From contig DAORAL010000012.1 in the NCBI GenBank assembly GCA_035344155.1, forward strand, positions 19,470 through 83,469: a stretch of DNA of 64,000 bases, given 5' to 3'. The DNA comes from Phycisphaerae bacterium (GTDB lineage Bacteria; Planctomycetota; Phycisphaerae; UBA1845). Of the stretch, positions 8,565-57,961 are shown one piece after another (position 1 is the first letter of the stretch; every line of letters starts with the position of its first letter). Both the position numbers and the translations under genes were made by a program. A model generated the notes under the pieces. That model saw only the letters and a program-made list of their open reading frames with translations, did not search any database and was not told the DNA's origin.

Positions 8565-9451
8565 AACCAGTGACCACAACGATGCAGCACAATTCCAAAG
8601 AGTCGTCAACTTCGTTGGCTCCGAAGATCACCCATCGCGAACGCGAGTTGGGGGCGATTATCAACTCGTACAACGAAGTGACCGAACGCCTCAAGCAATC
8701 GCACGATCGACTGCGTGATGAGGTTGTGCGGCTTCACGATCAGCTTGACGAGAAGAACCGCGAGTTGGCGAGGCGCGAACGGTTGGCAGCCTTGGGAGAG
8801 ATGGCTGCCGGCGTCGCCCACGAGATTCGCAATCCGCTCGGTGGGATTCGGTTGTACGCGGACCTGCTGATCAAGGACCTTTGCGAGATGCCGAAGTCGC
8901 AGCAACTCGCGCGTCGCGTTTCAGATGGCGTCAGTGTTTTGGAAAGCATCGTTGGTGATGTGGTTGAATTTGCGGGCGAATCAATGCCGGACGTTGCACC
9001 GGTTCGCGCTGCGACACTTTTGGAAGAAGCGATCGGGTTGGCGGCTCCGGCAGTGTCTTCGCGTGGATGCGACCTGCGGGTTAAACCCATTGATCGGGAA
9101 CTTTACGTTCAGGCGGACACGAACCAAGTTCTCAGAGCGCTGTTGAATTTGCTGCTGAACGCGGTGGATGCAGCCGGCGCGAATGGATCGATTCGAATCT
9201 CGGTCAGGTTGAACGCGTCGGGCACGCACTGCGATTATCTGATTGCAGACAGCGGTCCGGGGATTTCGGCGGACCTGATGAATCGCATCTTCCATCCGTT
9301 CTTTACGACGAAGTCGTCCGGTACGGGATTGGGGTTGGCGATTGTGCATCGGATCGCGGACGCGCACGGAGGTTCGGTGCGTGCACGCAATCGCGACGGT
9401 GGCGGCGCAGAGTTCTGTCTGTCGCTGCCGGTTGGCAAGTCGCCGCGATAG
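8561..9451 (+). CDS. Cytoplasmic, sensor-less histidine kinase (NtrB/FlgS-like)
   Basis: H-box AAGVAHEIRNPLGGI, N-box LLNLLLNAVDA, G1 DSGPGI, F-box IFHPFFTTK and G2 GTGLGLAIV. No TM segment or PAS-type input is present, only a coiled-coil leader. The start is TTG 8561, GTG 8570 or ATG 8582. Confidence 0.85.
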   Translation: MKPVTTTMQHNSKESSTSLAPKITHRERELGAIINSYNEVTERLKQSHDRLRDEVVRLHDQLDEKNRELARRERLAALGEMAAGVAHEIRNPLGGIRLYADLLIKDLCEMPKSQQLARRVSDGVSVLESIVGDVVEFAGESMPDVAPVRAATLLEEAIGLAAPAVSSRGCDLRVKPIDRELYVQADTNQVLRALLNLLLNAVDAAGANGSIRISVRLNASGTHCDYLIADSGPGISADLMNRIFHPFFTTKSSGTGLGLAIVHRIADAHGGSVRARNRDGGGAEFCLSLPVGKSPR

Positions 9452-9494
9452 GGAAAAGCGAACACAAGAAAGCGATAGTCGGAGATTTGAAGGT

Positions 9495-10889
9495 ATGGCG
9501 AGTATTTGTGTTGTAGACGATAAGGAATTGCTCCGCGATTCACTCAGCGCGACGCTGGAACGCGAGGATCATCGGGTGACGACGTTTGGTTGCCCCGAAG
9601 ATGCGCTGCCGAGCATCACCGACGGTCAGTACGAACTTGTATTGACCGACCTGAAGATGCCGGGGATGGATGGCGTGAGCATGCTGCGCGAGATGCGGGC
9701 GGCTGGCTGCGAGACGCCGGTGATCGTGATGACCGCGTTCGGTTCGGTGGCGTCGGCGGTTGAAGCGATGAAACTTGGCGCGTCGGACTATGTGCAGAAA
9801 CCGTTCGATGCGGACATGATCGTGGTGCAGGTTGAACGGGCGATCAGTCAGGCGCAACTCGTCAAGGAAAACGAGGCCCTCCGCACGAGTGTGAGCGACA
9901 TGCAGGCGTCGCGCGACATGATCGGTGACAGCGACCCGATGATCGAAACCCGTATCCACATCGCCCAGGTGGCCAACAGCAATGGCACGGTGCTGATCTC
10001 CGGCGAATCCGGGACCGGTAAGGAACTGGTGGCCCGTGCGATTCACGCGTCGTCATCGCGTGCAGCAAAACCGATGCTGTGTCTCAACTGTGCGGCGCTC
10101 AGTGCCAACCTTCTGGAAAGCGAACTGTTCGGTCACGAGCGCGGGGCCTACACCGGCGCCGACCGCGCCCGCAAGGGGCGATTCGAGATGGCCGACGAAG
10201 GCACGCTGCTCCTCGATGAAATTTCCGAAATGGCCTTGCCGCTTCAGGCGAAATTGCTTCGCGTCCTGCAGGAAGGTGAATTCGAGCGAGTTGGCAGCAG
10301 TGCGACGCGCCGGGCCAACGTTCGCGTCATCGCGACGACCAACCGCGACCTGATGGATTGGGTGCGCAAGGGTGAGTTCCGCGAAGACCTGTTCTATCGC
10401 CTCAACGTTTTGCCCGTGACCCTGGTTCCGCTTCGTGAAAGGGTTGGCGATGTTGCCCAACTGGCGGCTCATTTTTTGAAGCAGATCGCCAAGCGCGACG
10501 GACGCGAACCGGCAAGCTTTGATCGAAGCGCTCTGGCACTTCTCAGTGAATACGATTGGCCGGGCAACGTGCGCGAACTGGAAAATGTCTGTGAACGGGC
10601 GGCGGCTGTCGCGACCGATCGAATCATCCCCGCCAGCGTGGTTGAAGGTTGGCTGGTGAACACGCGGCAGACGACGGATGCGTTTGAGGGTTTGCGTCCG
10701 GGTCGAATGCTTGAGGATATGGAACGCCGGTTGATCGAATATGCGTTGAAGAAGCACGGCGGGCACCGCGAGAAATCGGCAAAGACGCTGGGCATGGGCG
10801 TTCGGACGCTCGGCATGAAGCTGAAGCAGATGCGTGAAGAGAAAGAACGTCACGAGAATCGCAATGCGCTCGTTTCGAGCGCGATGTAG
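9495..10889 (+). CDS. Sigma-54-dependent response regulator (NtrC/FlgR/FleR type)
   Basis: Receiver domain (VVDDKELL...LVLTDLKMPGMDG...KPF). The AAA+ domain has Walker A GESGTGKELVARAIH, ESELFGHERGAYTGA (a GAFTGA variant) and Walker B GTLLLDEI. There is a C-terminal HTH. ATG 9495 with a GGAG RBS is preferred over the track start at 9342. Confidence 0.9.
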   Translation: MASICVVDDKELLRDSLSATLEREDHRVTTFGCPEDALPSITDGQYELVLTDLKMPGMDGVSMLREMRAAGCETPVIVMTAFGSVASAVEAMKLGASDYVQKPFDADMIVVQVERAISQAQLVKENEALRTSVSDMQASRDMIGDSDPMIETRIHIAQVANSNGTVLISGESGTGKELVARAIHASSSRAAKPMLCLNCAALSANLLESELFGHERGAYTGADRARKGRFEMADEGTLLLDEISEMALPLQAKLLRVLQEGEFERVGSSATRRANVRVIATTNRDLMDWVRKGEFREDLFYRLNVLPVTLVPLRERVGDVAQLAAHFLKQIAKRDGREPASFDRSALALLSEYDWPGNVRELENVCERAAAVATDRIIPASVVEGWLVNTRQTTDAFEGLRPGRMLEDMERRLIEYALKKHGGHREKSAKTLGMGVRTLGMKLKQMREEKERHENRNALVSSAM

Positions 10890-10965
10890 GGTGGGCCATG
10901 CCCACCGCAGTTGAATACGAATGATATGACGAAGGCTAACGACATGGTGGCCACGGCCCACCCAA
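10887..10965. repeat. Palindromic intergenic repeat, GGGTGGGCCGTGCCCACC family, degenerate long copy
   Basis: The sequence is tagggtgggccatgcccacc-(39-nt core gcagtt...aacgacat)-ggtggccacggcccaccc. The left arm begins with the TAG stop of the response regulator. It is related to the copies at 42783, 49709 and 55842. Confidence 0.75.
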
Positions 10966-11069
10966 CGGACACGCGGGTGACGAAGTGACAGTCGGCAGTT
11001 TTTGCCGATCGCGCAGGAATTGCGCGGGTTGGAGAGGTCTTGGCAGCATGACTGGCGCGATTGCACCGG

Positions 11070-34730: not shown

Positions 34731-35513
34731 ATGCCCGCTTTAAGAACCGGTTCGGATGTGCTTGAGGTTTGGAAAGAGTACAAGCTTGCGGGAGGTCGTC
34801 CTCTTCGCAATCGACTGATGGAAACGTATCTGCCCATCGTCAAGTACACTGCCGACCGCATCAGCACGAAACTGCCCGACGAGGTTGATGTCGATGACCT
34901 TGTGTCGGCTGGCATTTTCGGATTGGTCGATGCCATCGAAGCCTATGACATGGAGCGGGGCGTGAAGTTCGAGACATACTGCGCGCCGCGTATTCGCGGG
35001 GCCATGCTCGACGAACTGCGTGCGATGGATTGGGTGCCGCGCCTGGTTCGAAGTCGCGCCAACAAGTTGCAACGCGTATGCAGTTCGCTCGAAGCCGAAC
35101 TTCGCAGGCAACCAACCGACAGTGAGCTCGCGAAAAAGCTCGGCGTCTCCAAAAGTGAACTCGCCAAGATCGTTCGCGATGCGACGGCTGTCTCGCAGAT
35201 TTCGCTTTCACGCAAACACTTTGAAACCGATTCAAGCCGCGACGTCTGCGAGATCGATGTGCTCGAAGACAAGCGTGGCCGCAATCCCGTCGCTGAAGTG
35301 CAGAAGCGCGACCTCAAGAGCTTGATCACCCGAGGGCTCACCCGTGCGGAAAGGCTCATCCTGATTCTCTACTACTACGAAGAGATGACGATGAAGGAAA
35401 TCGGCGCGACGCTCGATCTGTCTGAAAGCAGGGTCAGCCAGATGCACTCGGCGATCTTGAATCGACTGAAATCGCAACTCAAGAACCGTGAACGCGAATT
35501 GTCGCGGGCTTAG
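34731..35513 (+). CDS. fliA: Flagellar RNA polymerase sigma factor (sigma-28, FliA/SigD/WhiG family)
   Basis: Region 2 YLPIVKYTADRI...DLVSAGIFGLVDAIEAYD, region 3, and region 4 LILILYYYEEMTMKEIGATLDLSESRVSQMHSAIL. A GGAGGAG RBS is present. Confidence 0.9.
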   Translation: MPALRTGSDVLEVWKEYKLAGGRPLRNRLMETYLPIVKYTADRISTKLPDEVDVDDLVSAGIFGLVDAIEAYDMERGVKFETYCAPRIRGAMLDELRAMDWVPRLVRSRANKLQRVCSSLEAELRRQPTDSELAKKLGVSKSELAKIVRDATAVSQISLSRKHFETDSSRDVCEIDVLEDKRGRNPVAEVQKRDLKSLITRGLTRAERLILILYYYEEMTMKEIGATLDLSESRVSQMHSAILNRLKSQLKNRERELSRA

Positions 35514-35580
35514 AGCACCTTGAGTCCAAACGCAGCGGCGCGACAGCGTCGTCATTCCCGCGCAGGCGGGAATCCAGGGG
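35511..35580 (+). repeat. 70-bp intergenic repeat, copy 1 (core hairpin ATTCCCGC-GCAG-GCGGGAAT)
   Basis: tagagcaccttgagtccaaacgcagcggcgcgacagcgtcgtcattcccgcgcaggcgggaatccagggg. It starts at the fliA TAG stop and differs at about 5 positions from the copy at 37378. Confidence 0.85.
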
Positions 35581-35924
35581 AAAAACACTGCGATTGGATT
35601 GAGTTCGCCATAGACCGATCGTGACGGCTGCTCCAATCGTTGAATGGCCGTCCCCCGTATCCGCAATCAGCGAGCGTCGACCGCCAATACCCGCGCGGTC
35701 ACGCCATCTACGACCGATAACTCGATTCGAACCGGTCTTCCGCTCGCTCCACGCCACATTGGCGCCCTTGAAGCCAGAATGCCTGGTTCGCTATGTTATG
35801 GTTTCAGGGGGTGTGTCGTCGTTTCACTTTGCGTCATGGCGCTACCAATGCATCGCCGATAAAACCATGAGGCCAGTCACTGGGAAAGAGCGTACGGTTC
35901 ACCTCGACGCACAGGAGACTGGAA

Positions 35925-36408: not shown

Positions 36409-37380
36409 ATGCAATACACGCACATGCACGGCTGCGGCAATTCGTTCTATGTCATCGACGCGCGCGATGGCGGTCCTGATGATCGCGCCGCCATCGATAC
36501 GGTGCGCAGGCACTGCGGCGACCCGTTTGATCTTGACGGCATTGTGATGATCCATCCATCGGCCATCGCTGATGTTAAAACCGTGATCTACAACTCAGAC
36601 GGCTCCCGTGCGCCAATGTGTGGCAATGGCGTCCGCTGTCTCAGCAAGTTCGTGGTCGACCATACGCCCGATGCATCAACGCTGCTGGTGGAGCCGACGA
36701 CGATCGGCGAGTTGACGCGAGCACTGGCGACATCAGCCGAGGGACTTCCACCTCAGGTTCGGCGGGTTCTGCTCGCTTCAATCATGCAAACGGAATGGAC
36801 GGTGGACGATCGCGTTACGCTGCGCCGAATGACGGCTGAGACTGATTCGGGAATCAAAACGCACTATTGCGTGTTACGGGCGGATGGGGTGATCTGGGCG
36901 ACGGTATCGCTTGGAAGTCCTGAAACGCGTCTTGCGAGATTGAATTGTACACTCGACGGAGACGAAGCGTTCGACCGCATGGTCCGCGTTGGCGATGGCT
37001 GTTTCCAAGTGTCCGTTATCGGACTTGGCAACCTCCACTGCGTCGTGTTCGTGGATGATGTCGAAACCGTCAACGTGGAAGCGCAGGGGCGATTGATCGA
37101 AACGTGCGCTGAGATATTCCCCGACAGTGTCAACGTGCATTTCGTTCAAACGTTTAGCCCCACGCATCTTCGAATCCGCACTTGGGAGCGGGGAGCGGGT
37201 GCTACGCTGGCGTGCGGGACGGGCTCATGTGCGTCTGTGATCGCCGGAATGAAGACGGGACGATGTCAATCCAACTGCCGCGTGGATCAGCCGGGAGGGA
37301 CGATTTACGTGGATGTGGCCGACGATGTTCTGATGTCCGGACCGGCGGTCGAAGTTAGTCAGGGGGAATGGCCCGACTAG
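36409..37380 (+). CDS. dapF: Diaminopimelate epimerase
   Basis: MHGCGNSFYVID, first catalytic Cys in NSDGSRAPMCGNGVRC, second in TLACGTGSCA. At 323 aa it is about 40-50 aa longer than typical, with an insertion after the first Cys motif. Confidence 0.88.
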   Translation: MQYTHMHGCGNSFYVIDARDGGPDDRAAIDTVRRHCGDPFDLDGIVMIHPSAIADVKTVIYNSDGSRAPMCGNGVRCLSKFVVDHTPDASTLLVEPTTIGELTRALATSAEGLPPQVRRVLLASIMQTEWTVDDRVTLRRMTAETDSGIKTHYCVLRADGVIWATVSLGSPETRLARLNCTLDGDEAFDRMVRVGDGCFQVSVIGLGNLHCVVFVDDVETVNVEAQGRLIETCAEIFPDSVNVHFVQTFSPTHLRIRTWERGAGATLACGTGSCASVIAGMKTGRCQSNCRVDQPGGTIYVDVADDVLMSGPAVEVSQGEWPD

Positions 37381-37447
37381 GGCACCTCGAGTCCAATCGT
37401 AGCCGCGCGACAGCGTCGTCATTCCCGCGCAGGCGGGAATCCAGGGG
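37378..37447 (+). repeat. 70-bp intergenic repeat, copy 2
   Basis: tagggcacctcgagtccaatcgtagccgcgcgacagcgtcgtcattcccgcgcaggcgggaatccagggg. It starts at the dapF TAG stop. Confidence 0.85.
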
Positions 37448-37689
37448 CAGAACGAAGGCACTCCAGGTGGGGTCCGGCATCCGTGCTGTGAGGAATGGGC
37501 GAGCAAAACGCGACGCCTGGATTGGGATCGCTATAGCAACGAGGTCGATGTCGCCGGTGTTTTGTCTGGATTGACGCCGGGGGGCAGCTTGGGTCGATTT
37601 GTTTTTCATCACTGGGTTGATTCACCCGATAAACCAAGGACAGGCCCAATCCCTGAACCCGCGTAGAAGGTTCACAATCGGAGAGAGAG

Positions 37690-42088: not shown

Positions 42089-42751
42089 ATGTCGCAAGTC
42101 ACCAAATCTGTGTGCAGTAAACACCTCAGCCGAGCCAGGCGTATGCCGATCTTCGCCGTCATGACCTACGGATTGCTCTTGGGGATGGCTTGGGTGTGCG
42201 GTTGCCACAAGCCGGCAGGTTACTTCGAGATCACCAACCATGTCGATGTCGGCGAGTCGGAGCAGCTGCACGAGGTTTTCGACGAGGCCTATTACATGAC
42301 GTCGCCGGATGGCAATATGGACGTGGTGGTGCGGCGGAGCAGTCAAAACGACATCAACGACCCCAACCGCGTTGCACAAATCGTTCATATCCGCAGCGTG
42401 TTTTCGCCGGTGGAAGATCGCAACAAGATCGAAAGCACGATGATCAACGGCGTGGTCGCGTATTCGATCATCGGTGATCTGGGAGCCGTGTGCTTTCAGG
42501 GGGCTGGCTTCTCATCGTTTTCGGAGAACCGCAAGGGCGACACGTTGAAAGGCGAGTTGGAGCAGTCCAACCTGCGGCTCGTCCGGCGCGTGGGGGAGAT
42601 TGGCGACATCTTCAACCGCACGCGATTGTCGGGCGAATTCAAAGCCACTCGCGATGAAAAAGCCGTGGTCAGAATCCTGAACGAAATGGACCGGTTCCTC
42701 GGGCCGCAACCGCGATACATCCCACCACCGCCCGGCACAAATCCGTTGTAA
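42089..42751 (+). CDS. Hypothetical lipoprotein
   Basis: Signal peptide with a lipobox-like GMAWVCGC. I recognise no domain. The start could be TTG 42056, ATG 42089 or ATG 42143. Confidence 0.55.
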   Translation: MSQVTKSVCSKHLSRARRMPIFAVMTYGLLLGMAWVCGCHKPAGYFEITNHVDVGESEQLHEVFDEAYYMTSPDGNMDVVVRRSSQNDINDPNRVAQIVHIRSVFSPVEDRNKIESTMINGVVAYSIIGDLGAVCFQGAGFSSFSENRKGDTLKGELEQSNLRLVRRVGEIGDIFNRTRLSGEFKATRDEKAVVRILNEMDRFLGPQPRYIPPPPGTNPL

Positions 42752-42782: not shown

Positions 42783-42847
42783 GTAGGGTGGGCCGTGCCC
42801 ACCATTGTCGTTGGCAACCAAACAGCGGTGGGCACGGCCCACCCTAC
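42783..42847. repeat. Palindromic intergenic repeat, full copy (inverted core orientation)
   Basis: gtagggtgggccgtgcccacc-attgtcgttggcaaccaaacagc-ggtgggcacggcccaccctac. The 21-bp arms are perfect inverted repeats and each arm is itself a hairpin (GGTGGGC-cgt-GCCCACC). It lies between convergent genes. Confidence 0.85.
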
Positions 42848-42856
42848 GCGATTCCT

Positions 42857-43099
42857 CTATGGCAATTTGATTTCGTCCGTCGCTATATCAAGCGGGACAT
42901 GATGGTGGTCGCTCGGTTTGCTTTCCGAGAAAATCCGCACAATGCAAAAGATGCAAAGCGCTGTAACCAGCCCTATGCTGCCGAGCATCATCGCCCAACC
43001 GCCCGGAGTCAGCCCCGTGATTTCGGAAGCATCAGTCGGTGGTGTGTTGGCCAGCATTTGTGCCGACACGAATTGAATGAATGTCCATCCTGATAGCAT
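42857..43099 (-). CDS. Small membrane protein, possible NSS-transporter small subunit (MetS-like)
   Basis: 80-aa ORF starting 3 nt after the transporter stop. It has a single TM, GGWAMMLGSIGLVTALCIFCIVRIF. A shorter product from an internal Met (MLANTPP...) is possible. Confidence 0.45.
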   Translation of the reverse strand: MLSGWTFIQFVSAQMLANTPPTDASEITGLTPGGWAMMLGSIGLVTALCIFCIVRIFSESKPSDHHHVPLDIATDEIKLP

Positions 43100-48362: not shown

Positions 48363-48674
48363 GAATTTCCCCTCTTGATGTCGAAGTAGGTTCTTGTAAC
48401 CCAGTCCCTGGATCACAGGGACGCCATGCCCGGCTACAAAAAAAGAGACACATTGGCACCGCGATTTTGCCCGGTGAATGTCTCTCTCAACAGTTGCGCT
48501 TCTTGGCAACCTCAATACGTTGGCGATTCAGGAGTTCTCCACTCCAGCCTGATCGCCGCTTCAACTGAATTCCCTTATGATAGTGATCTCGGGAGGTCCG
48601 GGTCAACCACGAACCCGGCGATTCAGGACGCTAATGCGGACGCAAAGTGGACACGATTGCGGGTGAATGAATCG

Positions 48675-49712
48675 ATGATTCAACCATGCGACACGACAAA
48701 ATCAAGCATTTCAGGGGCGCTGCGTATCGGACCACTCGCAGTCGCCCATCCGTTTGTGCAAGCCGCGTTGAGCGGTTACACGGACTTGGCCATGCGCCGT
48801 ATTGCCCGCATGCACGGTGCGGATTACTGCATCAACGAGGTTGTGTTGGATCGCTCGGTGCTTCACGACGGACCTTGGCAGCGCAAACTTCTGACCGTTG
48901 AGCCCGACGATCATCCGGTCGGGGCGCAGCTTATGGGCGGTGATCCGACGACATTTGGACCAGCCGCCGACCGCATGGTGTCGGCTGGTTATGACGTCAT
49001 CGATATCAATTTCGGATGCCCGGCGCCGAAAGCGCAAAATCGTTGTCGCGGTGGATTCCTTCTGTCCGAACCGGAGACAGCCGCGGCCATCGTTCGCAAC
49101 GTCGTCGATGCAGTGGGGGATCGTTGTCCGGTCACCTTAAAGATGCGGCGCGGGTTGGATGATTCCGCCGCCAGCGAGCGCAGCTTCTTTGAGATTTTCG
49201 ACCTGGCGTTTTCGTTGGGAGTGTCGGCGATCACGGTTCATGGGCGCTCGGTGGAACAGCGTTATCGCGGGCCCAGTGATTGGCAATTCCTTGCGCGGGT
49301 CAAAGCGCATGCCGGTTCGCGCACCGTGCTTGGAAGTGGTGATCTGTTCACAGCCGACGATTGCATTCGCATGATGGAAGAGACCGGCGTCGATGGCGTG
49401 ACCATCGCGCGGGGATCGATGGGCAACCCGTGGATCTTCAACCAGTGCCTCGCGCTCGCGCGTGGAGAATGCGAAGCGGCAGAACTCAAAGGTCCAGGGA
49501 TCGCCGACCAGCGCGACACGATCATCCAGCATTTCGAAGAGACGGCCAAATTGCATGGACACGAGAAAGCCGGCAAACTTATGGGCAAGTTCGGCGTTCG
49601 CTACGCATCGCACCACCCCAAGTGCAAACGCATCCGAGAAGCCTTTAGCCGCGGCAGTTCAACCGAGCAATTCCTCGAAACAATCAAAGTCTGGTACGAA
49701 GACTACGCGTAG
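48675..49712 (+). CDS. tRNA-dihydrouridine synthase (Dus family)
   Basis: FVQAALSGYTDLAMRRIARMHGADY, VIDINFGCPAPK and ITVHGRS are Dus motifs. ATG 48675 is preferred over the track start 48426. Confidence 0.85.
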   Translation: MIQPCDTTKSSISGALRIGPLAVAHPFVQAALSGYTDLAMRRIARMHGADYCINEVVLDRSVLHDGPWQRKLLTVEPDDHPVGAQLMGGDPTTFGPAADRMVSAGYDVIDINFGCPAPKAQNRCRGGFLLSEPETAAAIVRNVVDAVGDRCPVTLKMRRGLDDSAASERSFFEIFDLAFSLGVSAITVHGRSVEQRYRGPSDWQFLARVKAHAGSRTVLGSGDLFTADDCIRMMEETGVDGVTIARGSMGNPWIFNQCLALARGECEAAELKGPGIADQRDTIIQHFEETAKLHGHEKAGKLMGKFGVRYASHHPKCKRIREAFSRGSSTEQFLETIKVWYEDYA

Positions 49713-49772
49713 GGTGGGCCGTGCCCACCGCAGTTTGAGCGCCAACGACATGGTGGGCACGGCCCACCCTAC
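49709..49772. repeat. Palindromic intergenic repeat, full copy
   Basis: gtagggtgggccgtgcccacc-gcagtttgagcgccaacgacat-ggtgggcacggcccaccctac. It contains the dus TAG stop and ends 2 nt before the stop of the convergent gene. Confidence 0.85.
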
Positions 49773-49774
49773 AG

Positions 49775-51886
49775 TTACTGCACCGACAAGTTGTTCAGAT
49801 AGTCCGCCAGCGCCTGGCGCTGCTGGTTGACCTCTTCCTGCAACTTGGCGACGGTGGCTTGTTCTTTTTCGATCGTCGTTTCCTGATCGTTCAGTTTGGT
49901 CAGCAGGCGGGTGTAATACTCGCTGTTTTGCTTGACCGACTTCATGTTTTCGCGGATGCGTTCCTGCTCGCGCGAGATGCTTTCGATGGACTCGCGGTGT
50001 TGATCGAGGTTCATCTGCGTCGTGCTGAGAATCTGCTTGAGCTGCATGGTCTTTTCAAGCGCGTCGCGCACCTTGGCGGGCAGTTCCTTTGCCCGGACGA
50101 AAAACTCGATCCGATCCGTGTCGGTCGTCAATAGGGCCATCTGTACGTCGCGGATATACTCCTGCGTCACCTTGAACTCACTCGACGCGCCGGCATCGAC
50201 GTTGGTCTTGAAGCGATAGATTGCTTCGGTGGTCTCAAACGGTTTCGCCGAATCGACCAATTCCCAGTTCGCCATTCGCGGATGCTCGATCACCAGCGTT
50301 TTCTGGTGGCCGCCCTTGTTCTCCAACGTATAGACCTGCGTGTGGGCGAGCTTTCGTTTGAGCATCAGCACGCCGTTGACCAAGCTGCCGGTTTGAAGCG
50401 TGTCGGTCGAGTTCAACTTTGTCGCATCCACCCGCATGTCCAGGTCCACCGCATAACTCAAGAGTCGCGACTGCCCGGGCGGGAAGTGGTCGATCTGGGC
50501 ATCGCCTGCATAACCGCCATCATCAAGCACGGTGATCGGGCCCTGTGGTAAATCCTTGCCCGTCGAATTCGTCAGACGTGCGCCATTGAGGGGATGCTTC
50601 GCGAGCACGCCCTGGTTGTAAATGCTCAACCGCTCGACATCGATGTCATCGGTCACGATCGGAATCATCGCCGACCGCTGGCGGGGCAGGGTGACGCCGC
50701 CCACCTTGTATTGAAACAACTCGCCCATGTCGGCTGCATCGGCGATTGAAGAGACACTACTGACGTAATCGGCCTCCTCGTCGCTGTCGAACGTCGGTGC
50801 GGCCAGTTCTTCGCTGATTTGTATACCCACACTCGTCTCGGCTGGGCGCATTTTCGCTCTGCCCCTCCGAGCCGGCGCCGCAGCAGGCGCCTTTCCGAAG
50901 TAGCCATTGCTATTTCCACCGGCGAGACCGCCTCCTCCACCAAACCCGCCGCCGCCAGTTCCACCCTCATAAGTCTGCGGTGACAAGCTTGCATAAAGCT
51001 CAGGCCGTACGACAGGGCGGTGAATGTAGAGCGGCTGATACAAATCCTGCACGAACGAGATGGGCCGACCGCTGACCAGCGACAGTTCGACGTTGTTCCA
51101 ATCGCTTTCAGTTTGATTTTCAACGACCGCCCAGCCTTGCAGCGAACCCTTGGCATCCTTCGTACCCGCATCCGGCATCATCAGACGATAGGTCGTCTTC
51201 CAAATGGGCGTCTCAACGACGTACCCAAGGCGAACGCGTCGGTTTCCGTCGCCAGTGAATTCGATGGTGACCGGTTTCTTGTCCTGATCGCGCGATTGGG
51301 CGAGGACGAGCAGCGCCTTGGCCAACTCTTCCTGAAGTTCCTTGTCCTTCAATTCGATGCGTGACGTGTCGGCAAGGTCCACCGAGCGGATCGTCCCGCC
51401 TTCGATGATGTTGAGCACCCACGTTTCGAGGGTCTCGTCGTCGCCGATTCTGACTTTCTTTTTTTCCAGACCCAGGATCGTGCCTTCGATCGTGGTGCCT
51501 TGCGCTTCGACGAGCAGGTCAGCGCCGCGAAGCTGATTGAGCAATTCGCCCAACGACGGATTGGTCCGGATGTCCACCTGAAAACTACGCAGCGTCTTGG
51601 AAAGTGGGTCCTGCGATGGATACACGACGCTGCCGATCTTCCCGCCGTCAAGATCCTGAAGCACGAGCGATTTAAGAATGTCGTTGATCTGCTCGGTCTT
51701 GAATCGAAGTTCGGTCTTGGTATTCCCGTCGACCTTACCGCGATGTTCGAAGAATCCGACCCCGCTGCTGAACAGGATCACGCGCTCGACCGGTACGTCG
51801 GTTTGAGGTTCAGTGCCAGCCCGCACGAGGGAAGCAGCGATCAAGAGCAGGGCGGTGGCGATGATGGGGCGGCGATTGGATGACAT
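49775..51886 (-). CDS. Secreted DUF4139-like protein with C-terminal coiled coil
   Basis: Signal peptide MSSNRRPIIATALLLIAASLVRA. The N-terminal VERVILFSSGVGFFEHRGKVDG...INDILKSLVLQD and the central WAVVENQTESDWNNVELSLVSGRPISF resemble the DUF4140/DUF4139 patterns from memory. There is a Gly-rich loop (GGTGGGGFGGGGGLAGG). AAGGAAA RBS. Confidence 0.55.
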   Translation of the reverse strand: MSSNRRPIIATALLLIAASLVRAGTEPQTDVPVERVILFSSGVGFFEHRGKVDGNTKTELRFKTEQINDILKSLVLQDLDGGKIGSVVYPSQDPLSKTLRSFQVDIRTNPSLGELLNQLRGADLLVEAQGTTIEGTILGLEKKKVRIGDDETLETWVLNIIEGGTIRSVDLADTSRIELKDKELQEELAKALLVLAQSRDQDKKPVTIEFTGDGNRRVRLGYVVETPIWKTTYRLMMPDAGTKDAKGSLQGWAVVENQTESDWNNVELSLVSGRPISFVQDLYQPLYIHRPVVRPELYASLSPQTYEGGTGGGGFGGGGGLAGGNSNGYFGKAPAAAPARRGRAKMRPAETSVGIQISEELAAPTFDSDEEADYVSSVSSIADAADMGELFQYKVGGVTLPRQRSAMIPIVTDDIDVERLSIYNQGVLAKHPLNGARLTNSTGKDLPQGPITVLDDGGYAGDAQIDHFPPGQSRLLSYAVDLDMRVDATKLNSTDTLQTGSLVNGVLMLKRKLAHTQVYTLENKGGHQKTLVIEHPRMANWELVDSAKPFETTEAIYRFKTNVDAGASSEFKVTQEYIRDVQMALLTTDTDRIEFFVRAKELPAKVRDALEKTMQLKQILSTTQMNLDQHRESIESISREQERIRENMKSVKQNSEYYTRLLTKLNDQETTIEKEQATVAKLQEEVNQQRQALADYLNNLSVQ

Positions 51887-55329: not shown

Positions 55330-55845
55330 ATGGCAGAGCGAGCAGGTGCAGTAACTTTCAAAGGCGGTCCAATGACGTTGGTTGGAGACGAAGTTAAAGT
55401 TGGCGACAAAGCCCCCGCATTCAAGGTGACCGGTCAGGACATGAGCGACATCACCAATGCCGACTATGCCGGCAAGGTGCTCGTCCTTTCCGTCGTGCCC
55501 AGTCTCGACACACCCGTTTGCGCCACGCAGACCAGAAAGTTCAACGAAAAGGCGGCTGATCTTTCCGGTGACGTTGGCATTCTCACCGTCAGCCTCGACC
55601 TGCCGATGGCCGCCAAGCGTTTCTGCGGCGCCGAAGGCATCGAAGCCGTCAAGACCGGCAGCGATTTCAAGTACCTCGGATTCGGCGAAGGTTATGGCGT
55701 GAAGATCAAGGAACTCGGTCTGCTTTGTCGTGCGGTATTCGTCGTTGGAAAAGATGGCAAGGTTGTTCACGCCCAGTACGTCGGTGAAGTCGCGGAAGAA
55801 CCGAACTACGACGCAGTGATGCAAGCCGTCAAGTCAGCGCTGTAG
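55330..55845 (+). CDS. tpx: Thiol peroxidase (atypical 2-Cys peroxiredoxin)
   Basis: GKVLVLSVVPSLDTPVCATQTRKFNEKA is the Tpx active-site motif. 171 aa with a GGAGG RBS. Confidence 0.92.
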   Translation: MAERAGAVTFKGGPMTLVGDEVKVGDKAPAFKVTGQDMSDITNADYAGKVLVLSVVPSLDTPVCATQTRKFNEKAADLSGDVGILTVSLDLPMAAKRFCGAEGIEAVKTGSDFKYLGFGEGYGVKIKELGLLCRAVFVVGKDGKVVHAQYVGEVAEEPNYDAVMQAVKSAL

Positions 55846-55866
55846 GGTGGGCCGTGCCCACCCTAC
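55842..55866. repeat. Solo hairpin unit of the GGGTGGGCC repeat family (likely terminator)
   Basis: gtagggtgggc-cgt-gcccaccctac, a perfect 11-bp stem. It contains the tpx TAG stop and lies between convergent genes. Confidence 0.8.
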
Positions 55867-55876
55867 GAGTTAGCAG

Positions 55877-57961
55877 TCACTCGCCGTGATTTGACAGCCA
55901 CGTCAGCGCCGGGCCGTTATCCGGATCAATCTCAAGCAGCCGTCTGAAATAGGCGGCTGCTTCTTTGCGCCGACCCTGCGCCTCTCTGATTGTCCCCAGG
56001 CGATCCAGCGCATTGATAACGCCCATGCCATTGGGATCCAAGTTGGTCTCAAGCTTGAGGGCGGTTTCGTATTCAATTGATGCGTTGTCCCATTGCCTCA
56101 GCTTCATATACAGCGTGCCCAAGGCGCGGTGATATTTGGGGTGCGCAATCTGGCCCGCCGACTTTCGCTCTTGCACGCACTGGCGAAACGCTGCGAGCGC
56201 CTCGTCGTATTTGCCGGCTTCGACCAACGTGTTGCCCATCGCGAAATACAGATCGGGCAGATGCGGTTGAATGGCGATGGCCTGCTTGTGCAAGTCGATC
56301 AACTTGTCGTAATCGGAGGGCTTGGGGGTGTCGGGCAGCTTTTCTCGCAGCGCCAAAGAAAGGTTGGCGAGCAGTGCTGCATTGTTTGGATCGATTCGGC
56401 GCGCCGCTTCGTAGTGGGTGATCGCAACGTCCACACTACCGCGCTGTTTTTCGAGCAGGCCCAGGTTCATCTGGGCAATGGCGCACTCCGGTTCGACTTC
56501 GACGGAATGTGCCCACAAGGTGTACGAATCCTTCCAATGGGTGCTCTGCTTCCAGGTCAACACAGACAGTCCGCCGACAATGATGATCGCGATCGCACTT
56601 GGCAGCGCAAAATGCTTCACGCCATCAGCGTTTTCAGACTGCTTGCGGACCAGCCACATCCAACCAAACCCGAACGCGATCGCCCACGGAATGCAGCCCA
56701 GGTAGGCGTACTTGTCCGCGACGAGTTGCGGTCCGCTTTGGGCAATACCGAGAATCGGGCTGAGGACGCCCACATAGCATATCGCCATCACCACCAGGCC
56801 TGGGACGCGCTTGCGATAGCGCACCAATGCAATGGCGGCTGCGATTACGACAACAGCCGCGATGACGTATCGCGCGGCGAACGGGTTGTTGGGGGTGGGC
56901 AGGGGGACAAGCGCGGCAAGATTAAATGGCGCGAGCGTCTTGTACGAATACCAGAAGAGTCCATAGAAAAACTGGGCGATTCGATCGTCGATGCCCCATT
57001 CGGCGAGCGATTTCATCGTCCCGCGTTGATTGGCCTGCGCTGCTTTCGCGAATGTCGCGAAGATCATCGCCAATACAAAAAACGGAATCTTCTCGATCAC
57101 GACGCCAAGCATGCGATTAATCGACCAGCCGCTTTTTCCACCAACGCGCTTTAGCGGATAAACGTCCAAGACCAGCATGACAGCCGGCAGGGTGATGCCC
57201 CATGCTTTCGACAGAAGCGACAACCCGAGCAACAAAATCGACGCAACATAAAACGCGATCTTCCGCCCGTCCCAGCGGTGCACCAGCACATAGCGCAGGT
57301 AGCAGTAGAGGCAGGGTATCAAGAACATCGCCGACAACACATCGCGCCGCTCCGTCACCCAGACCGCATTTTCAACACGCAGCGGATGGCAGCCAAAAAA
57401 CAATGCTGCGAAAGCAGCCGCCAAAGGCGTCAAGTAGTCCGCAGCAGCCGGCGGGTCATGAATCGTGATGCGCAGAATCAATCGCACCAGAAAATAGAAT
57501 GCAACGACGGTCAGAACGTGGTAAATCAGATTGGTCAAGTGGACGATCTTGGGATCAAGGCCGGCAACATAACGATCTTTGGCCTTTTGATTCAAATTTT
57601 CAAAACGCGAATGGCTGATCGCGTGGTCAATGGCGTACGACATCCAGGTCAGCGGATGGTAGTGACCCATCTTGTCCTTGGTGAACATCCAGTTGACGTG
57701 CTCCGATGTCAACCCACGGATTTGTGGGTTGTTGGTGATGACTTTGTCATCGTCCCAATTGGTGAATCCCGCGTCGAGAGCGGGCAGGAATGTCACGAAC
57801 GTACAAACGGCAAGCAAGATCGGAATCGCAACGTGAACCCAAACAGGAGCGCTGGTCGACTTGTCCCAGTGCGACAGGCTTGGGGCGACTCCTTGCGAAT
57901 CACCTGATCGGCGCGGTTCTTGCCGGTTGCGGTTTTTGCTTTTGGACGCTTTCTTGGCCAT
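55877..57961 (-). CDS. TMTC-like membrane protein: polytopic GT-C-like N-domain fused to C-terminal TPR repeats
   Basis: The first loop FTNWDDDKVITNNPQIRGLT is followed by more than 10 TM segments. C-terminal TPRs read AQMNLGLLEKQRGSVDVAITHYEAARRIDPNN..., YFAMGNTLVEAGKYDEALAAFRQCV.... ATG 57961 gives a basic N-terminus, MAKKASKSKNRNRQ. Confidence 0.75.
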   Translation of the reverse strand: MAKKASKSKNRNRQEPRRSGDSQGVAPSLSHWDKSTSAPVWVHVAIPILLAVCTFVTFLPALDAGFTNWDDDKVITNNPQIRGLTSEHVNWMFTKDKMGHYHPLTWMSYAIDHAISHSRFENLNQKAKDRYVAGLDPKIVHLTNLIYHVLTVVAFYFLVRLILRITIHDPPAAADYLTPLAAAFAALFFGCHPLRVENAVWVTERRDVLSAMFLIPCLYCYLRYVLVHRWDGRKIAFYVASILLLGLSLLSKAWGITLPAVMLVLDVYPLKRVGGKSGWSINRMLGVVIEKIPFFVLAMIFATFAKAAQANQRGTMKSLAEWGIDDRIAQFFYGLFWYSYKTLAPFNLAALVPLPTPNNPFAARYVIAAVVVIAAAIALVRYRKRVPGLVVMAICYVGVLSPILGIAQSGPQLVADKYAYLGCIPWAIAFGFGWMWLVRKQSENADGVKHFALPSAIAIIIVGGLSVLTWKQSTHWKDSYTLWAHSVEVEPECAIAQMNLGLLEKQRGSVDVAITHYEAARRIDPNNAALLANLSLALREKLPDTPKPSDYDKLIDLHKQAIAIQPHLPDLYFAMGNTLVEAGKYDEALAAFRQCVQERKSAGQIAHPKYHRALGTLYMKLRQWDNASIEYETALKLETNLDPNGMGVINALDRLGTIREAQGRRKEAAAYFRRLLEIDPDNGPALTWLSNHGE

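Follow-up and report, generated by a model that had tools for sequence, protein, structure and literature searches.

The closest described relatives of the repeats reported here are the GTAG-tagged REPs, a superfamily that is defined by a GTAG head and occupies extragenic sites after genes (Di Nocera 2013, PMC3733652; Nunvar 2010, PMC2817692). GTAG-tagged REPs, of which 24 families have been published, prefer the spacers between convergent or tandem genes, occur mostly as head-to-head dimers, and are reported to supply the TAG stop codons of upstream genes (PMC3733652), and all of these traits recur in the elements described below. REPs of this class have G+C-rich stems of 6–13 bp with a short loop and reach tens to hundreds of copies per host genome. 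The nearest single sequence, the Haemophilus influenzae REP GTAGGGTGGGCTTcAGCCCACC (Table 1 of Nunvar 2010, PMC2817692), has the same head and the same GGTGGGC/GCCCACC stem, but has a 4-nt loop where the loop here (CGT or CAT) has 3 nt. The REPINs of Pseudomonas fluorescens (Bertels and Rainey 2011, PMC3116915) share the organization, that is, an inverted pair of REPs with a short spacer that can form one long hairpin, a doublet that is the conserved unit, and singlets that look like decay products; they differ in that the REP sequence is another one, in that each arm here is also a perfect small hairpin, and in that the RAYT associated with the present motif is of the Escherichia coli type rather than the Pseudomonas type.

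The REP/BIME system of E. coli and its enzyme TnpAREP (Ton-Hoang 2012, PMC3333891; Messing 2012, PMC3479197; PDB 4ER8) share with the present elements the GTAG tetranucleotide and the pairing of a REP with an inverted REP through a linker, and the RAYT associated with the present motif is homologous to E. coli RayT (37% identity). However, E. coli REPs are imperfect palindromes of 30–40 nt in which a stem mismatch is needed for binding, whereas those described here are perfect 17-nt hairpins, and the RAYTs linked to the present motif include a 191-aa form that has, unlike the E. coli enzyme, an extra segment of ~20 aa and a Cys-rich tail. The subterminal hairpins of IS200/IS605 and of its non-autonomous derivatives are likewise read, as a hairpin plus a guide tetranucleotide, by a Y1 HUH enzyme acting on single-stranded DNA; unlike in IS200/IS605, the enzyme associated with the present motif scores as a RAYT (NF047646) and only weakly as Y1_Tnp.

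Here, we analyze four palindromic elements in 64,000 nt of genomic DNA from an uncultured Phycisphaerae bacterium. The dimers differ from published GTAG REPs in having a lineage-specific, oriented core and in their host. Their REP sequence was not found in the supplements of PMC3733652, and the 17-nt hairpins were not found in literature text, in which shorter strings match unrelated titles. We conclude that the four palindromes are very probably GTAG-tagged REPs and REPINs that are served by a RAYT-dependent mechanism of the kind proposed below.

Results

Seven hairpin units form four elements at gene 3' ends

The window (the whole 64,000-nt stretch of DNA that was analyzed; G+C 56.8%) contains seven GGTGGGC-NNN-GCCCACC units, at positions 10890, 10946, 42787, 42827, 49713, 49752, and 55846, vs. 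0.20 units expected, and none of 100 shuffles reached seven (up to 2 mismatches allowed). The 11-mer head of the unit, GTAGGGTGGGC, occurs eight times vs. 0.33 expected (up to 1 mismatch allowed); GTAG or GTTG lies immediately 5' of the stem in all eight heads, and five of the eight are perfect over 21 nt. The unit comprises a 5' GTAG tag, a 7-bp G+C-rich stem, and a 3-nt loop. The seven units make up three inverted doublets, in each of which the GTAG tags face outward around a conserved, oriented core, and one singlet (Table 1), a density of 4 elements per 64 kb. The doublet layout is that of a REPIN, or head-to-head BIME. A profile search of the whole window (nhmmer, with a profile built from lineage copies) detected no site beyond the four, and an Rfam search of the whole window returned no match at the gathering score.

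A preliminary description of the window, made from its sequence, had listed four copies: two full copies with perfect 21-bp terminal inverted repeats and hairpin arms, a degenerate copy with a 39-nt core, and a solo hairpin. On re-reading of the sites, all four positions hold to within 1 nt and each element is of the kind described, with the degenerate copy having a right arm that has decayed to GGTGGCC and CCAAC and the solo hairpin being a lone perfect palindrome. The same description had traced the recurrent GRAHH and VGTAHPT peptides of spurious open reading frames to the repeats; these do follow from reading frames that pass through the arms. One ORF, 42788..43093, begins within the 42783 repeat and has no Pfam match.

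Table 1. Repeat elements of the window and one stop codon formed by a repeat head
Feature	Position	Strand	Composition
Full REPIN	42783..42847	- (core polarity)	REP 42783-42803, core 42804-42826, inverted REP 42827-42847
Full REPIN	49709..49772	+	REP 49709-49729, 22-nt core GCAGTTTGAGCGCCAACGACAT, inverted REP 49752-49772
TAG stop of Dus gene 48426..49712	49710..49712	+	Given by the GTAG head of the REP
Decaying long-core REPIN	10886..10966	+	REP 10886-10906 (CAT loop), 39-nt core, degenerate inverted REP 10946-10966
REP singlet, perfect 25-nt palindrome GTAG-GGTGGGC-CGT-GCCCACC-CTAC	55842..55866	.	Lone unit

The elements are positioned at gene 3' ends. All four loci in the 64 kb lie outside genes or at the very end of a gene, all four directly follow stop codons, and three of the four lie between convergent genes. 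At three sites (10886, 49709, and 55842) the GTAG tag itself supplies the TAG stop codon of the upstream gene. Thus, at site 10886, the TAG at 10887-10889 is the stop of a sigma-54 activator ORF (9342..10889), with a flagellar rod gene downstream; at site 49709, the element constitutes the entire spacer between the Dus gene (+) and a convergent DUF4139 gene (-, stop at 49775-49777); and, at site 55842, the TAG at 55843-55845 is the stop of a redoxin gene (55330..55845) that faces a convergent TPR gene with its stop at 55877-55879. Site 42783 lies between a gene for a 202-aa protein (+), ending at 42751, and a convergent gene for an 80-aa protein (-, 42857..43099), according to gene calls taken from a syntenic locus (L285).

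The repeated unit is a doublet with an oriented core

The 21-nt arms of each full copy are perfect inverted repeats (100% complementary at 49709), and the arms enclose cores of 23 nt (site 42783) and 22 nt (site 49709). The preliminary description had noted that the core occurs in two orientations, and we find that the 42783 core is the reverse complement of the 49709 core (inverted repeat of 45 nt, 91% complementarity), with the core polarity GCTGTTTGG...CAACGACAAT being read on the minus strand at site 42783. Scored with the profile of lineage copies, the two orientations at site 49709 obtain 70 vs. 32 bits; because the profile scores one orientation far above the other, the element has a polarity.

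We aligned nine doublets from the window, one sister strain, and the related metagenome-assembled genome MAG 8_bin.52 (JAUIEW01; 93.7% identity over 1436 nt at the one comparable locus, L091). The consensus reads GTAGGGTGGGCC(G/A)TGCCCACC - GCAGTTTGA..GCCAACGACAT - GGTGGGCACGGCCCACCCTAC, and the cores fall into two length classes, short (22–23 nt) and long (38–40 nt). The core ends, GCAGTTTGA...CCAACGACAT (the lineage core signature is also written GCAGTTTGA...CAACGACAT), are conserved and oriented across the nine doublets, and, since they are conserved in nine copies, we conclude that the repeated unit is the doublet together with its core. When copies are oriented by the core, the left-arm loop varies (CAT, CGT, or TAT) and the right-arm loop is always ACG, a pattern in the aligned sequences that hints at heterodimers. 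In E. coli, BIMEs are built from REP subtypes (Y and Z) that alternate and are connected by defined linker motifs, some of them bound by IHF. Several of the MAG 8_bin.52 copies carry 2–3 mismatches, and the MAG 8_bin.52 ortholog of the 10886 copy (in L091) keeps an intact right arm.

As single-stranded DNA, the doublets are predicted to adopt a minimum-energy fold in which the arms pair with each other over 21–22 bp, with energies of -30 to -32 kcal/mol and z scores of -8 to -9: a 21-bp stem with -32.1 kcal/mol and z -8.2 for the 42783 doublet, and -30.8 kcal/mol and z -8.9 for the 49709 doublet. As RNA, the predicted energies are -52 to -61 kcal/mol (-60.7 kcal/mol at 42783, -52.3 kcal/mol at 49709).

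RNA hairpins of such predicted stability, placed after the stop codon at all four sites and between convergent genes at three, would also be accounted for if the elements were non-mobile transcription terminators or stabilizers of mRNA 3' ends, kept by selection and similar to one another on account of a shared functional need, and the conserved occupancy of sites 42783 and 49709 across strains (see below) fits this explanation as well. Terminators, however, would not be expected to have the features that we observe: no T-tract lies 3' of the outer stems, the window has 20 terminator-like structures vs. 20.2 in shuffles, and the only matches within the elements are weak inner ones at 42787 and 42843. 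Neither a terminator function nor a stabilizer function explains why unlinked loci should have arms that are identical over 21 nt and a core in common that has a fixed orientation.

Strain comparison reveals one polymorphic site

The redoxin protein encoded upstream of site 55842 (171 aa) is encoded unchanged in 10 public contigs, with GCA_002338715.1, GCA_020427375.1, and GCA_041399145.1 among the assemblies that encode it, and the site itself is polymorphic between strains, the outcome of a check that the preliminary description had proposed: a singlet is present in the window and in two other contigs (L193 and L198), and a full doublet with a 38-nt core is present in seven others, with contig L200 ending 12 nt into the core. 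The singlet and the doublet differ by 56 nt, and the difference is bounded by direct GCCCACC repeats. Judged from the sequences, the doublet appears to have collapsed to the singlet, a direction that we infer, short of proof, since the additional 56 nt by themselves do not make up a complete unit. Replication slippage, with no enzyme involved, could account for this single polymorphism. Sites 42783 and 49709, that is, two of the three comparable sites, carry an element in all strains whose sequence includes them, and no transposition event was seen in the strain comparison of the three sites. At site 10886, polymorphism was judged against MAG 8_bin.52 (L091) only; when the sigma-54 activator ORF was used to look up strains, no recorded product matched it exactly, and the likely reason is an incorrect start, taken as that of the longest ORF.

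The flanks bear on whether the elements could be classical MITEs, that is, internally deleted derivatives of DDE-type insertion sequences that move by way of 21-bp terminal inverted repeats. An examination of the flanks for target-site duplications, also suggested by the preliminary description, came out negative: no target-site duplication or direct repeat flanks any of the four copies. The perfect terminal inverted repeats, the length of 64–81 nt, the absence of coding capacity, and the occurrence in both orientations are indeed MITE-like, but each arm is a self-contained GTAG hairpin that is also found alone, and the only gene family recurrently bracketed by the arms (see below) is that of Y1/HUH RAYTs, not that of DDE transposases. 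We consider classical MITEs to be an explanation with scarcely any probability. Accordingly, of the assignment to "REP/BIME- or MITE-like" elements made in the preliminary description, we retain the first part, as GTAG REPs that form head-to-head dimers, and discard the second.

Site 42783 shows a separate, local divergence between otherwise near-identical strains. Compared with three syntenic loci (L286–L288), the center of the core (42804-42826) has five clustered differences, ggcaacc vs. tgattca, and the 3' flank of the element diverges also, gcgattcctctatgg vs. gcgctgcgctagggc. The divergence at core and flank is far above that of the surrounding sequence.

The hairpin recurs in at least seven phyla

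We scanned a collection comprising one genome per species for GTAGGGTGGGC-NNN-GCCCACC. The scan yielded at least 120 blocks from at least 110 genomes in at least seven phyla; among the matches listed are genomes of 42 Cyanobacteriota, 35 Planctomycetota, 16 Pseudomonadota, 8 Desulfobacterota, 5 Poribacteria, 2 Nitrospirota, 1 Schekmanbacteria, and 1 unclassified organism, with four separate 8-kb blocks from MAG 8_bin.52. The number expected by chance over the whole collection is ~17, by our own calculation for uniform composition; because many of the matches are doublets, or occur several per genome, chance cannot explain the set, although a few lone matches could be fortuitous. At the listed loci the flanks are unrelated and the loops are variable. 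The motif is therefore, as had been supposed, a dispersed repeat that extends well beyond the four sites of the window. The terminator or stabilizer explanation considered above leaves unexplained why the same 18 specified bases should occur in at least seven phyla and should bracket RAYT genes; we regard it as very unlikely to account for the origin of the elements, and note that REPs can come to act as terminators or stabilizers secondarily, in which case such a role does not compete as an account of where they came from.

Across the family, the relation to stop codons seen in the window is found again. A TAG stop is given to an ORF of at least 150 codons by 16 of 142 heads, compared with at most 3 for any other single offset; in the other two frames, an ORF continues into the element in just 3 and 6 cases. 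The base that precedes GTAG is G in 8%, and the base that follows the hairpin is C in 5%, of 144 heads; the rarity of G before and of C after the hairpin fits a need for GTAG to remain unpaired.

When the 1744 ORFs located within 2.5 kb of the motif at 120 loci were clustered, no family was present at more than four loci, and the sole ORF family directly bracketed by the motif was that of RAYTs.

In a further set of sequences, 72 stretches of contigs catalogued as viral in IMG/VR (L121–L192) carry the GTAG REP motif, some of them many times over (for example L179, with seven copies in 15 kb); despite these 72 stretches, one IMG/VR contig alone encodes a RAYT relative. The contigs may come from regions next to prophages, or they may be pieces of the chromosomes of REP-rich hosts that were wrongly classified as viral. 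In two cyanobacterial loci, L094 (4034..., Leptolyngbyaceae) and L098 (5026..., Nostoc sp. T09), the REPs lie within a larger palindrome, ...ATTTGATTTTTGAAA.../...TTTCAGAAATCAAAT..., which matches the target palindrome described around the GTAG-15 dimers of Anabaena variabilis (Di Nocera 2013, PMC3733652).

RAYT genes are bracketed by the hairpin

In an Isosphaeraceae genome (L053) and a Nitrospirota genome (L072), two inverted copies of GTAGGGTGGGC-NNN-GCCCACC exactly enclose an ORF of 180–208 aa; in a Nostoc genome (L080), the RAYT ORF is cut by the end of the locus and the upstream hairpin copy alone is visible. These ORFs score 184–190 bits against NCBIfam NF047646 (REP-associated tyrosine transposase; cutoff 80) and only 20–28 bits against Pfam Y1_Tnp. 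A profile of 14 RAYT sequences matches E. coli TnpAREP (PDB 4ER8) with an E value of 2.6e-48, and, in the alignment of RAYTs with 4ER8, residues W94, Q95, E100, H101, and R104, which have been named as GTAG-contact residues (PMC6006769), are conserved. The motifs LPDHxHFL, RRFWEH, and YIHYNPVKHGLV show little or no variation among the 14 RAYTs, and the motifs DHxH, WE, and YIHYNP match subclass 2.2, which corresponds to Bertels group 2, the E. coli group (table of PMC6006769).

We assembled 83 RAYT loci; 80 are from metagenomes, one is a viral contig, and the other two are L053 and L072. At 52 of the 83, a GT[AG]G hairpin is present within 220 nt. The exact GGTGGGC stem is found at 19 loci (L053, L072, and 17 metagenome loci), on both sides of the gene in 14 of them; at the remaining 33, the GT[AG]G hairpin has a different sequence, in many cases one that is related to the GGTGGGC stem by compensatory changes (GGTGCGC/GCGCACC, GGTACGC/GCGTACC, GGTATGC/GCATACC, GGCGGGC/GCCCGCC, and GGTTGGGTTGA.../...AAACCCAAC). 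The stem variants cluster along the RAYT tree, co-variation that corresponds to the REP-RAYT pairing described by Nunvar 2010 (PMC2817692). The CGT loop does not occur on the exact GGTGGGC stem at any of the 80 metagenome RAYT loci; two loci (L235 and L236) have the CGT loop on variant stems.

Two features of these RAYT genes were observed in passing. In L235, an inverted REP, GGTGCGCACGGCGCACCCTAC, lies in frame inside the rayt gene (REP at 2161-2181, gene at 1889-2434), where it encodes the peptide VRTAHPT in a variable linker, and a matching type of REP flanks the gene on both sides. The 191-aa RAYT form that is tied to the GGTGGGC REP has an insert of ~20 aa and a conserved C-terminal W-x-C-x-C motif that ends in GE, at residues ~168–180; insert and Cys motif are absent from E. 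coli TnpAREP (165 aa).

The preliminary description had seen no transposase in the window, and tblastn with three RAYTs detected no match in the 64-kb window or in the loci compared. Its proposal to search for a RAYT was thus borne out in part: a cognate RAYT family flanked by the same hairpins exists in other genomes, but no member is in the window. No RAYT appears in the gene tables of the syntenic strain loci, and protein searches for RAYTs gave no Phycisphaerae-labelled match among the matches listed. Given that the window and the syntenic strain loci yielded no RAYT, the copies could be orphans of a lost enzyme, relics that decay or that serve a host function; the decaying copy at 10946-10966, the MAG 8_bin.52 copies with 2–3 mismatches, and the mostly stable occupancy of sites between strains are in line with this possibility. 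The perfection over 21 nt of five of the eight heads in the window argues against it. RAYT genes are typically single-copy and are not themselves mobile. For this lineage, the sequence examined comprised ~64 kb and its syntenic copies, out of a genome of several megabases, and the absence of a normally single-copy gene from such a sample carries no weight. We judge orphan relics to be improbable, and we favor REPs with a RAYT elsewhere in the same genome.

The window contains a second repeat family

A second dispersed repeat, of 76 nt, is present at 35511-35586 and 37378-37453 with 91% identity between copies. Each copy begins at the TAG stop of an upstream plus-strand ORF (34731..35513 and 36409..37380) and contains CGTC-ATTCCCGC-GCAG-GCGGGAAT-CCA, at 35550-35576 and 37417-37443, vs. 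0 expected by chance; the hairpin fragment of the repeat is also found in MAG 8_bin.52 (L108). CGTC-tagged REPs are described as having a CGTC tag, a stem that starts with AT, a 4-nt loop, and a CCA tail (PMC3733652), and the 76-nt repeat, to judge from these sequence features, fits that description.

Discussion

According to the mechanism that we propose, a RAYT whose gene lies at another chromosomal site, and which is an HUH/Y1 enzyme like E. coli TnpAREP, would recognize the hairpin together with the unpaired GTAG on single-stranded DNA and would cleave and rejoin the DNA, such that units are disseminated or excised. The REPIN, consisting of two inverted REPs and a core of ~22 nt or ~39 nt, would be the non-autonomous unit that is copied. 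Copies would persist at the 3' ends of genes, in most cases where two genes converge, and there the GTAG head would often turn into the TAG stop of the upstream gene and co-transcription of the copy would yield very stable RNA hairpins. Singlets would be doublets that have collapsed between direct GGTGGGC/GCCCACC repeats. By analogy with the RAYT loci of other genomes, the genome of this organism presumably contains a RAYT that mobilizes these copies; the copies are likely to be abundant genome-wide, and the RNA hairpins may affect mRNA 3' ends or termination.

For binding and cleavage, E. coli TnpAREP needs single-stranded DNA with GTAG and the REP hairpin, and also needs the mismatch in the REP stem (PMC3333891). 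The stems of the full copies in the window are perfect, without a mismatch, which is a point against the REP-RAYT reading.

Much of what we observe has precedents. GTAG REPs in Planctomycetes and Cyanobacteria, the supply of stop codons, the association with RAYTs, and the occurrence of families in distant organisms have all been published (PMC3733652, PMC2817692, PMC3116915, PMC5581495, PMC6006769). What is new here is a Phycisphaerae REPIN with a core of its own, and not a new kind of element.

The distribution of the hairpin raises the question of how it came to be shared. A single REP-RAYT lineage, with its 18 specified bases frozen, might be common to Cyanobacteriota, Planctomycetota, Poribacteria, Nitrospirota, Desulfobacterota, Pseudomonadota, and Schekmanbacteria and might have spread by repeated transfer of RAYT and REPIN between phyla, an idea that we put forward tentatively and regard as rather doubtful; the alternative to such transfer is extreme conservation. 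RAYTs of Planctomycetota and Cyanobacteria are 58–68% identical. A vehicle for RAYT transfer was not evident in plasmid records, in which 24 of 72,556 have a RAYT match, mostly E. coli rayT on large replicons, or in IMG/VR (one locus). If true, inter-phylum transfer would qualify the view that REPIN-RAYT systems are essentially vertical and that REPs are species-specific, and the excess of REP heads at TAG stops could mark a preference in insertion site rather than a survival filter.

For annotation, the results explain four intergenic palindromes and the spurious ORFs with GRAHH and VGTAHPT peptides. For gene expression in this organism, they indicate that three genes end in a TAG that is buried at the base of a very stable hairpin, such that termination or mRNA stability may be affected. 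For the family, they extend the host range of GTAG REPs to a Phycisphaerae lineage and reveal that one exact REP hairpin accompanies one RAYT clade across many phyla, which makes it a useful case in which to test by what route REP-RAYT systems spread and how tightly the enzyme constrains the hairpin.
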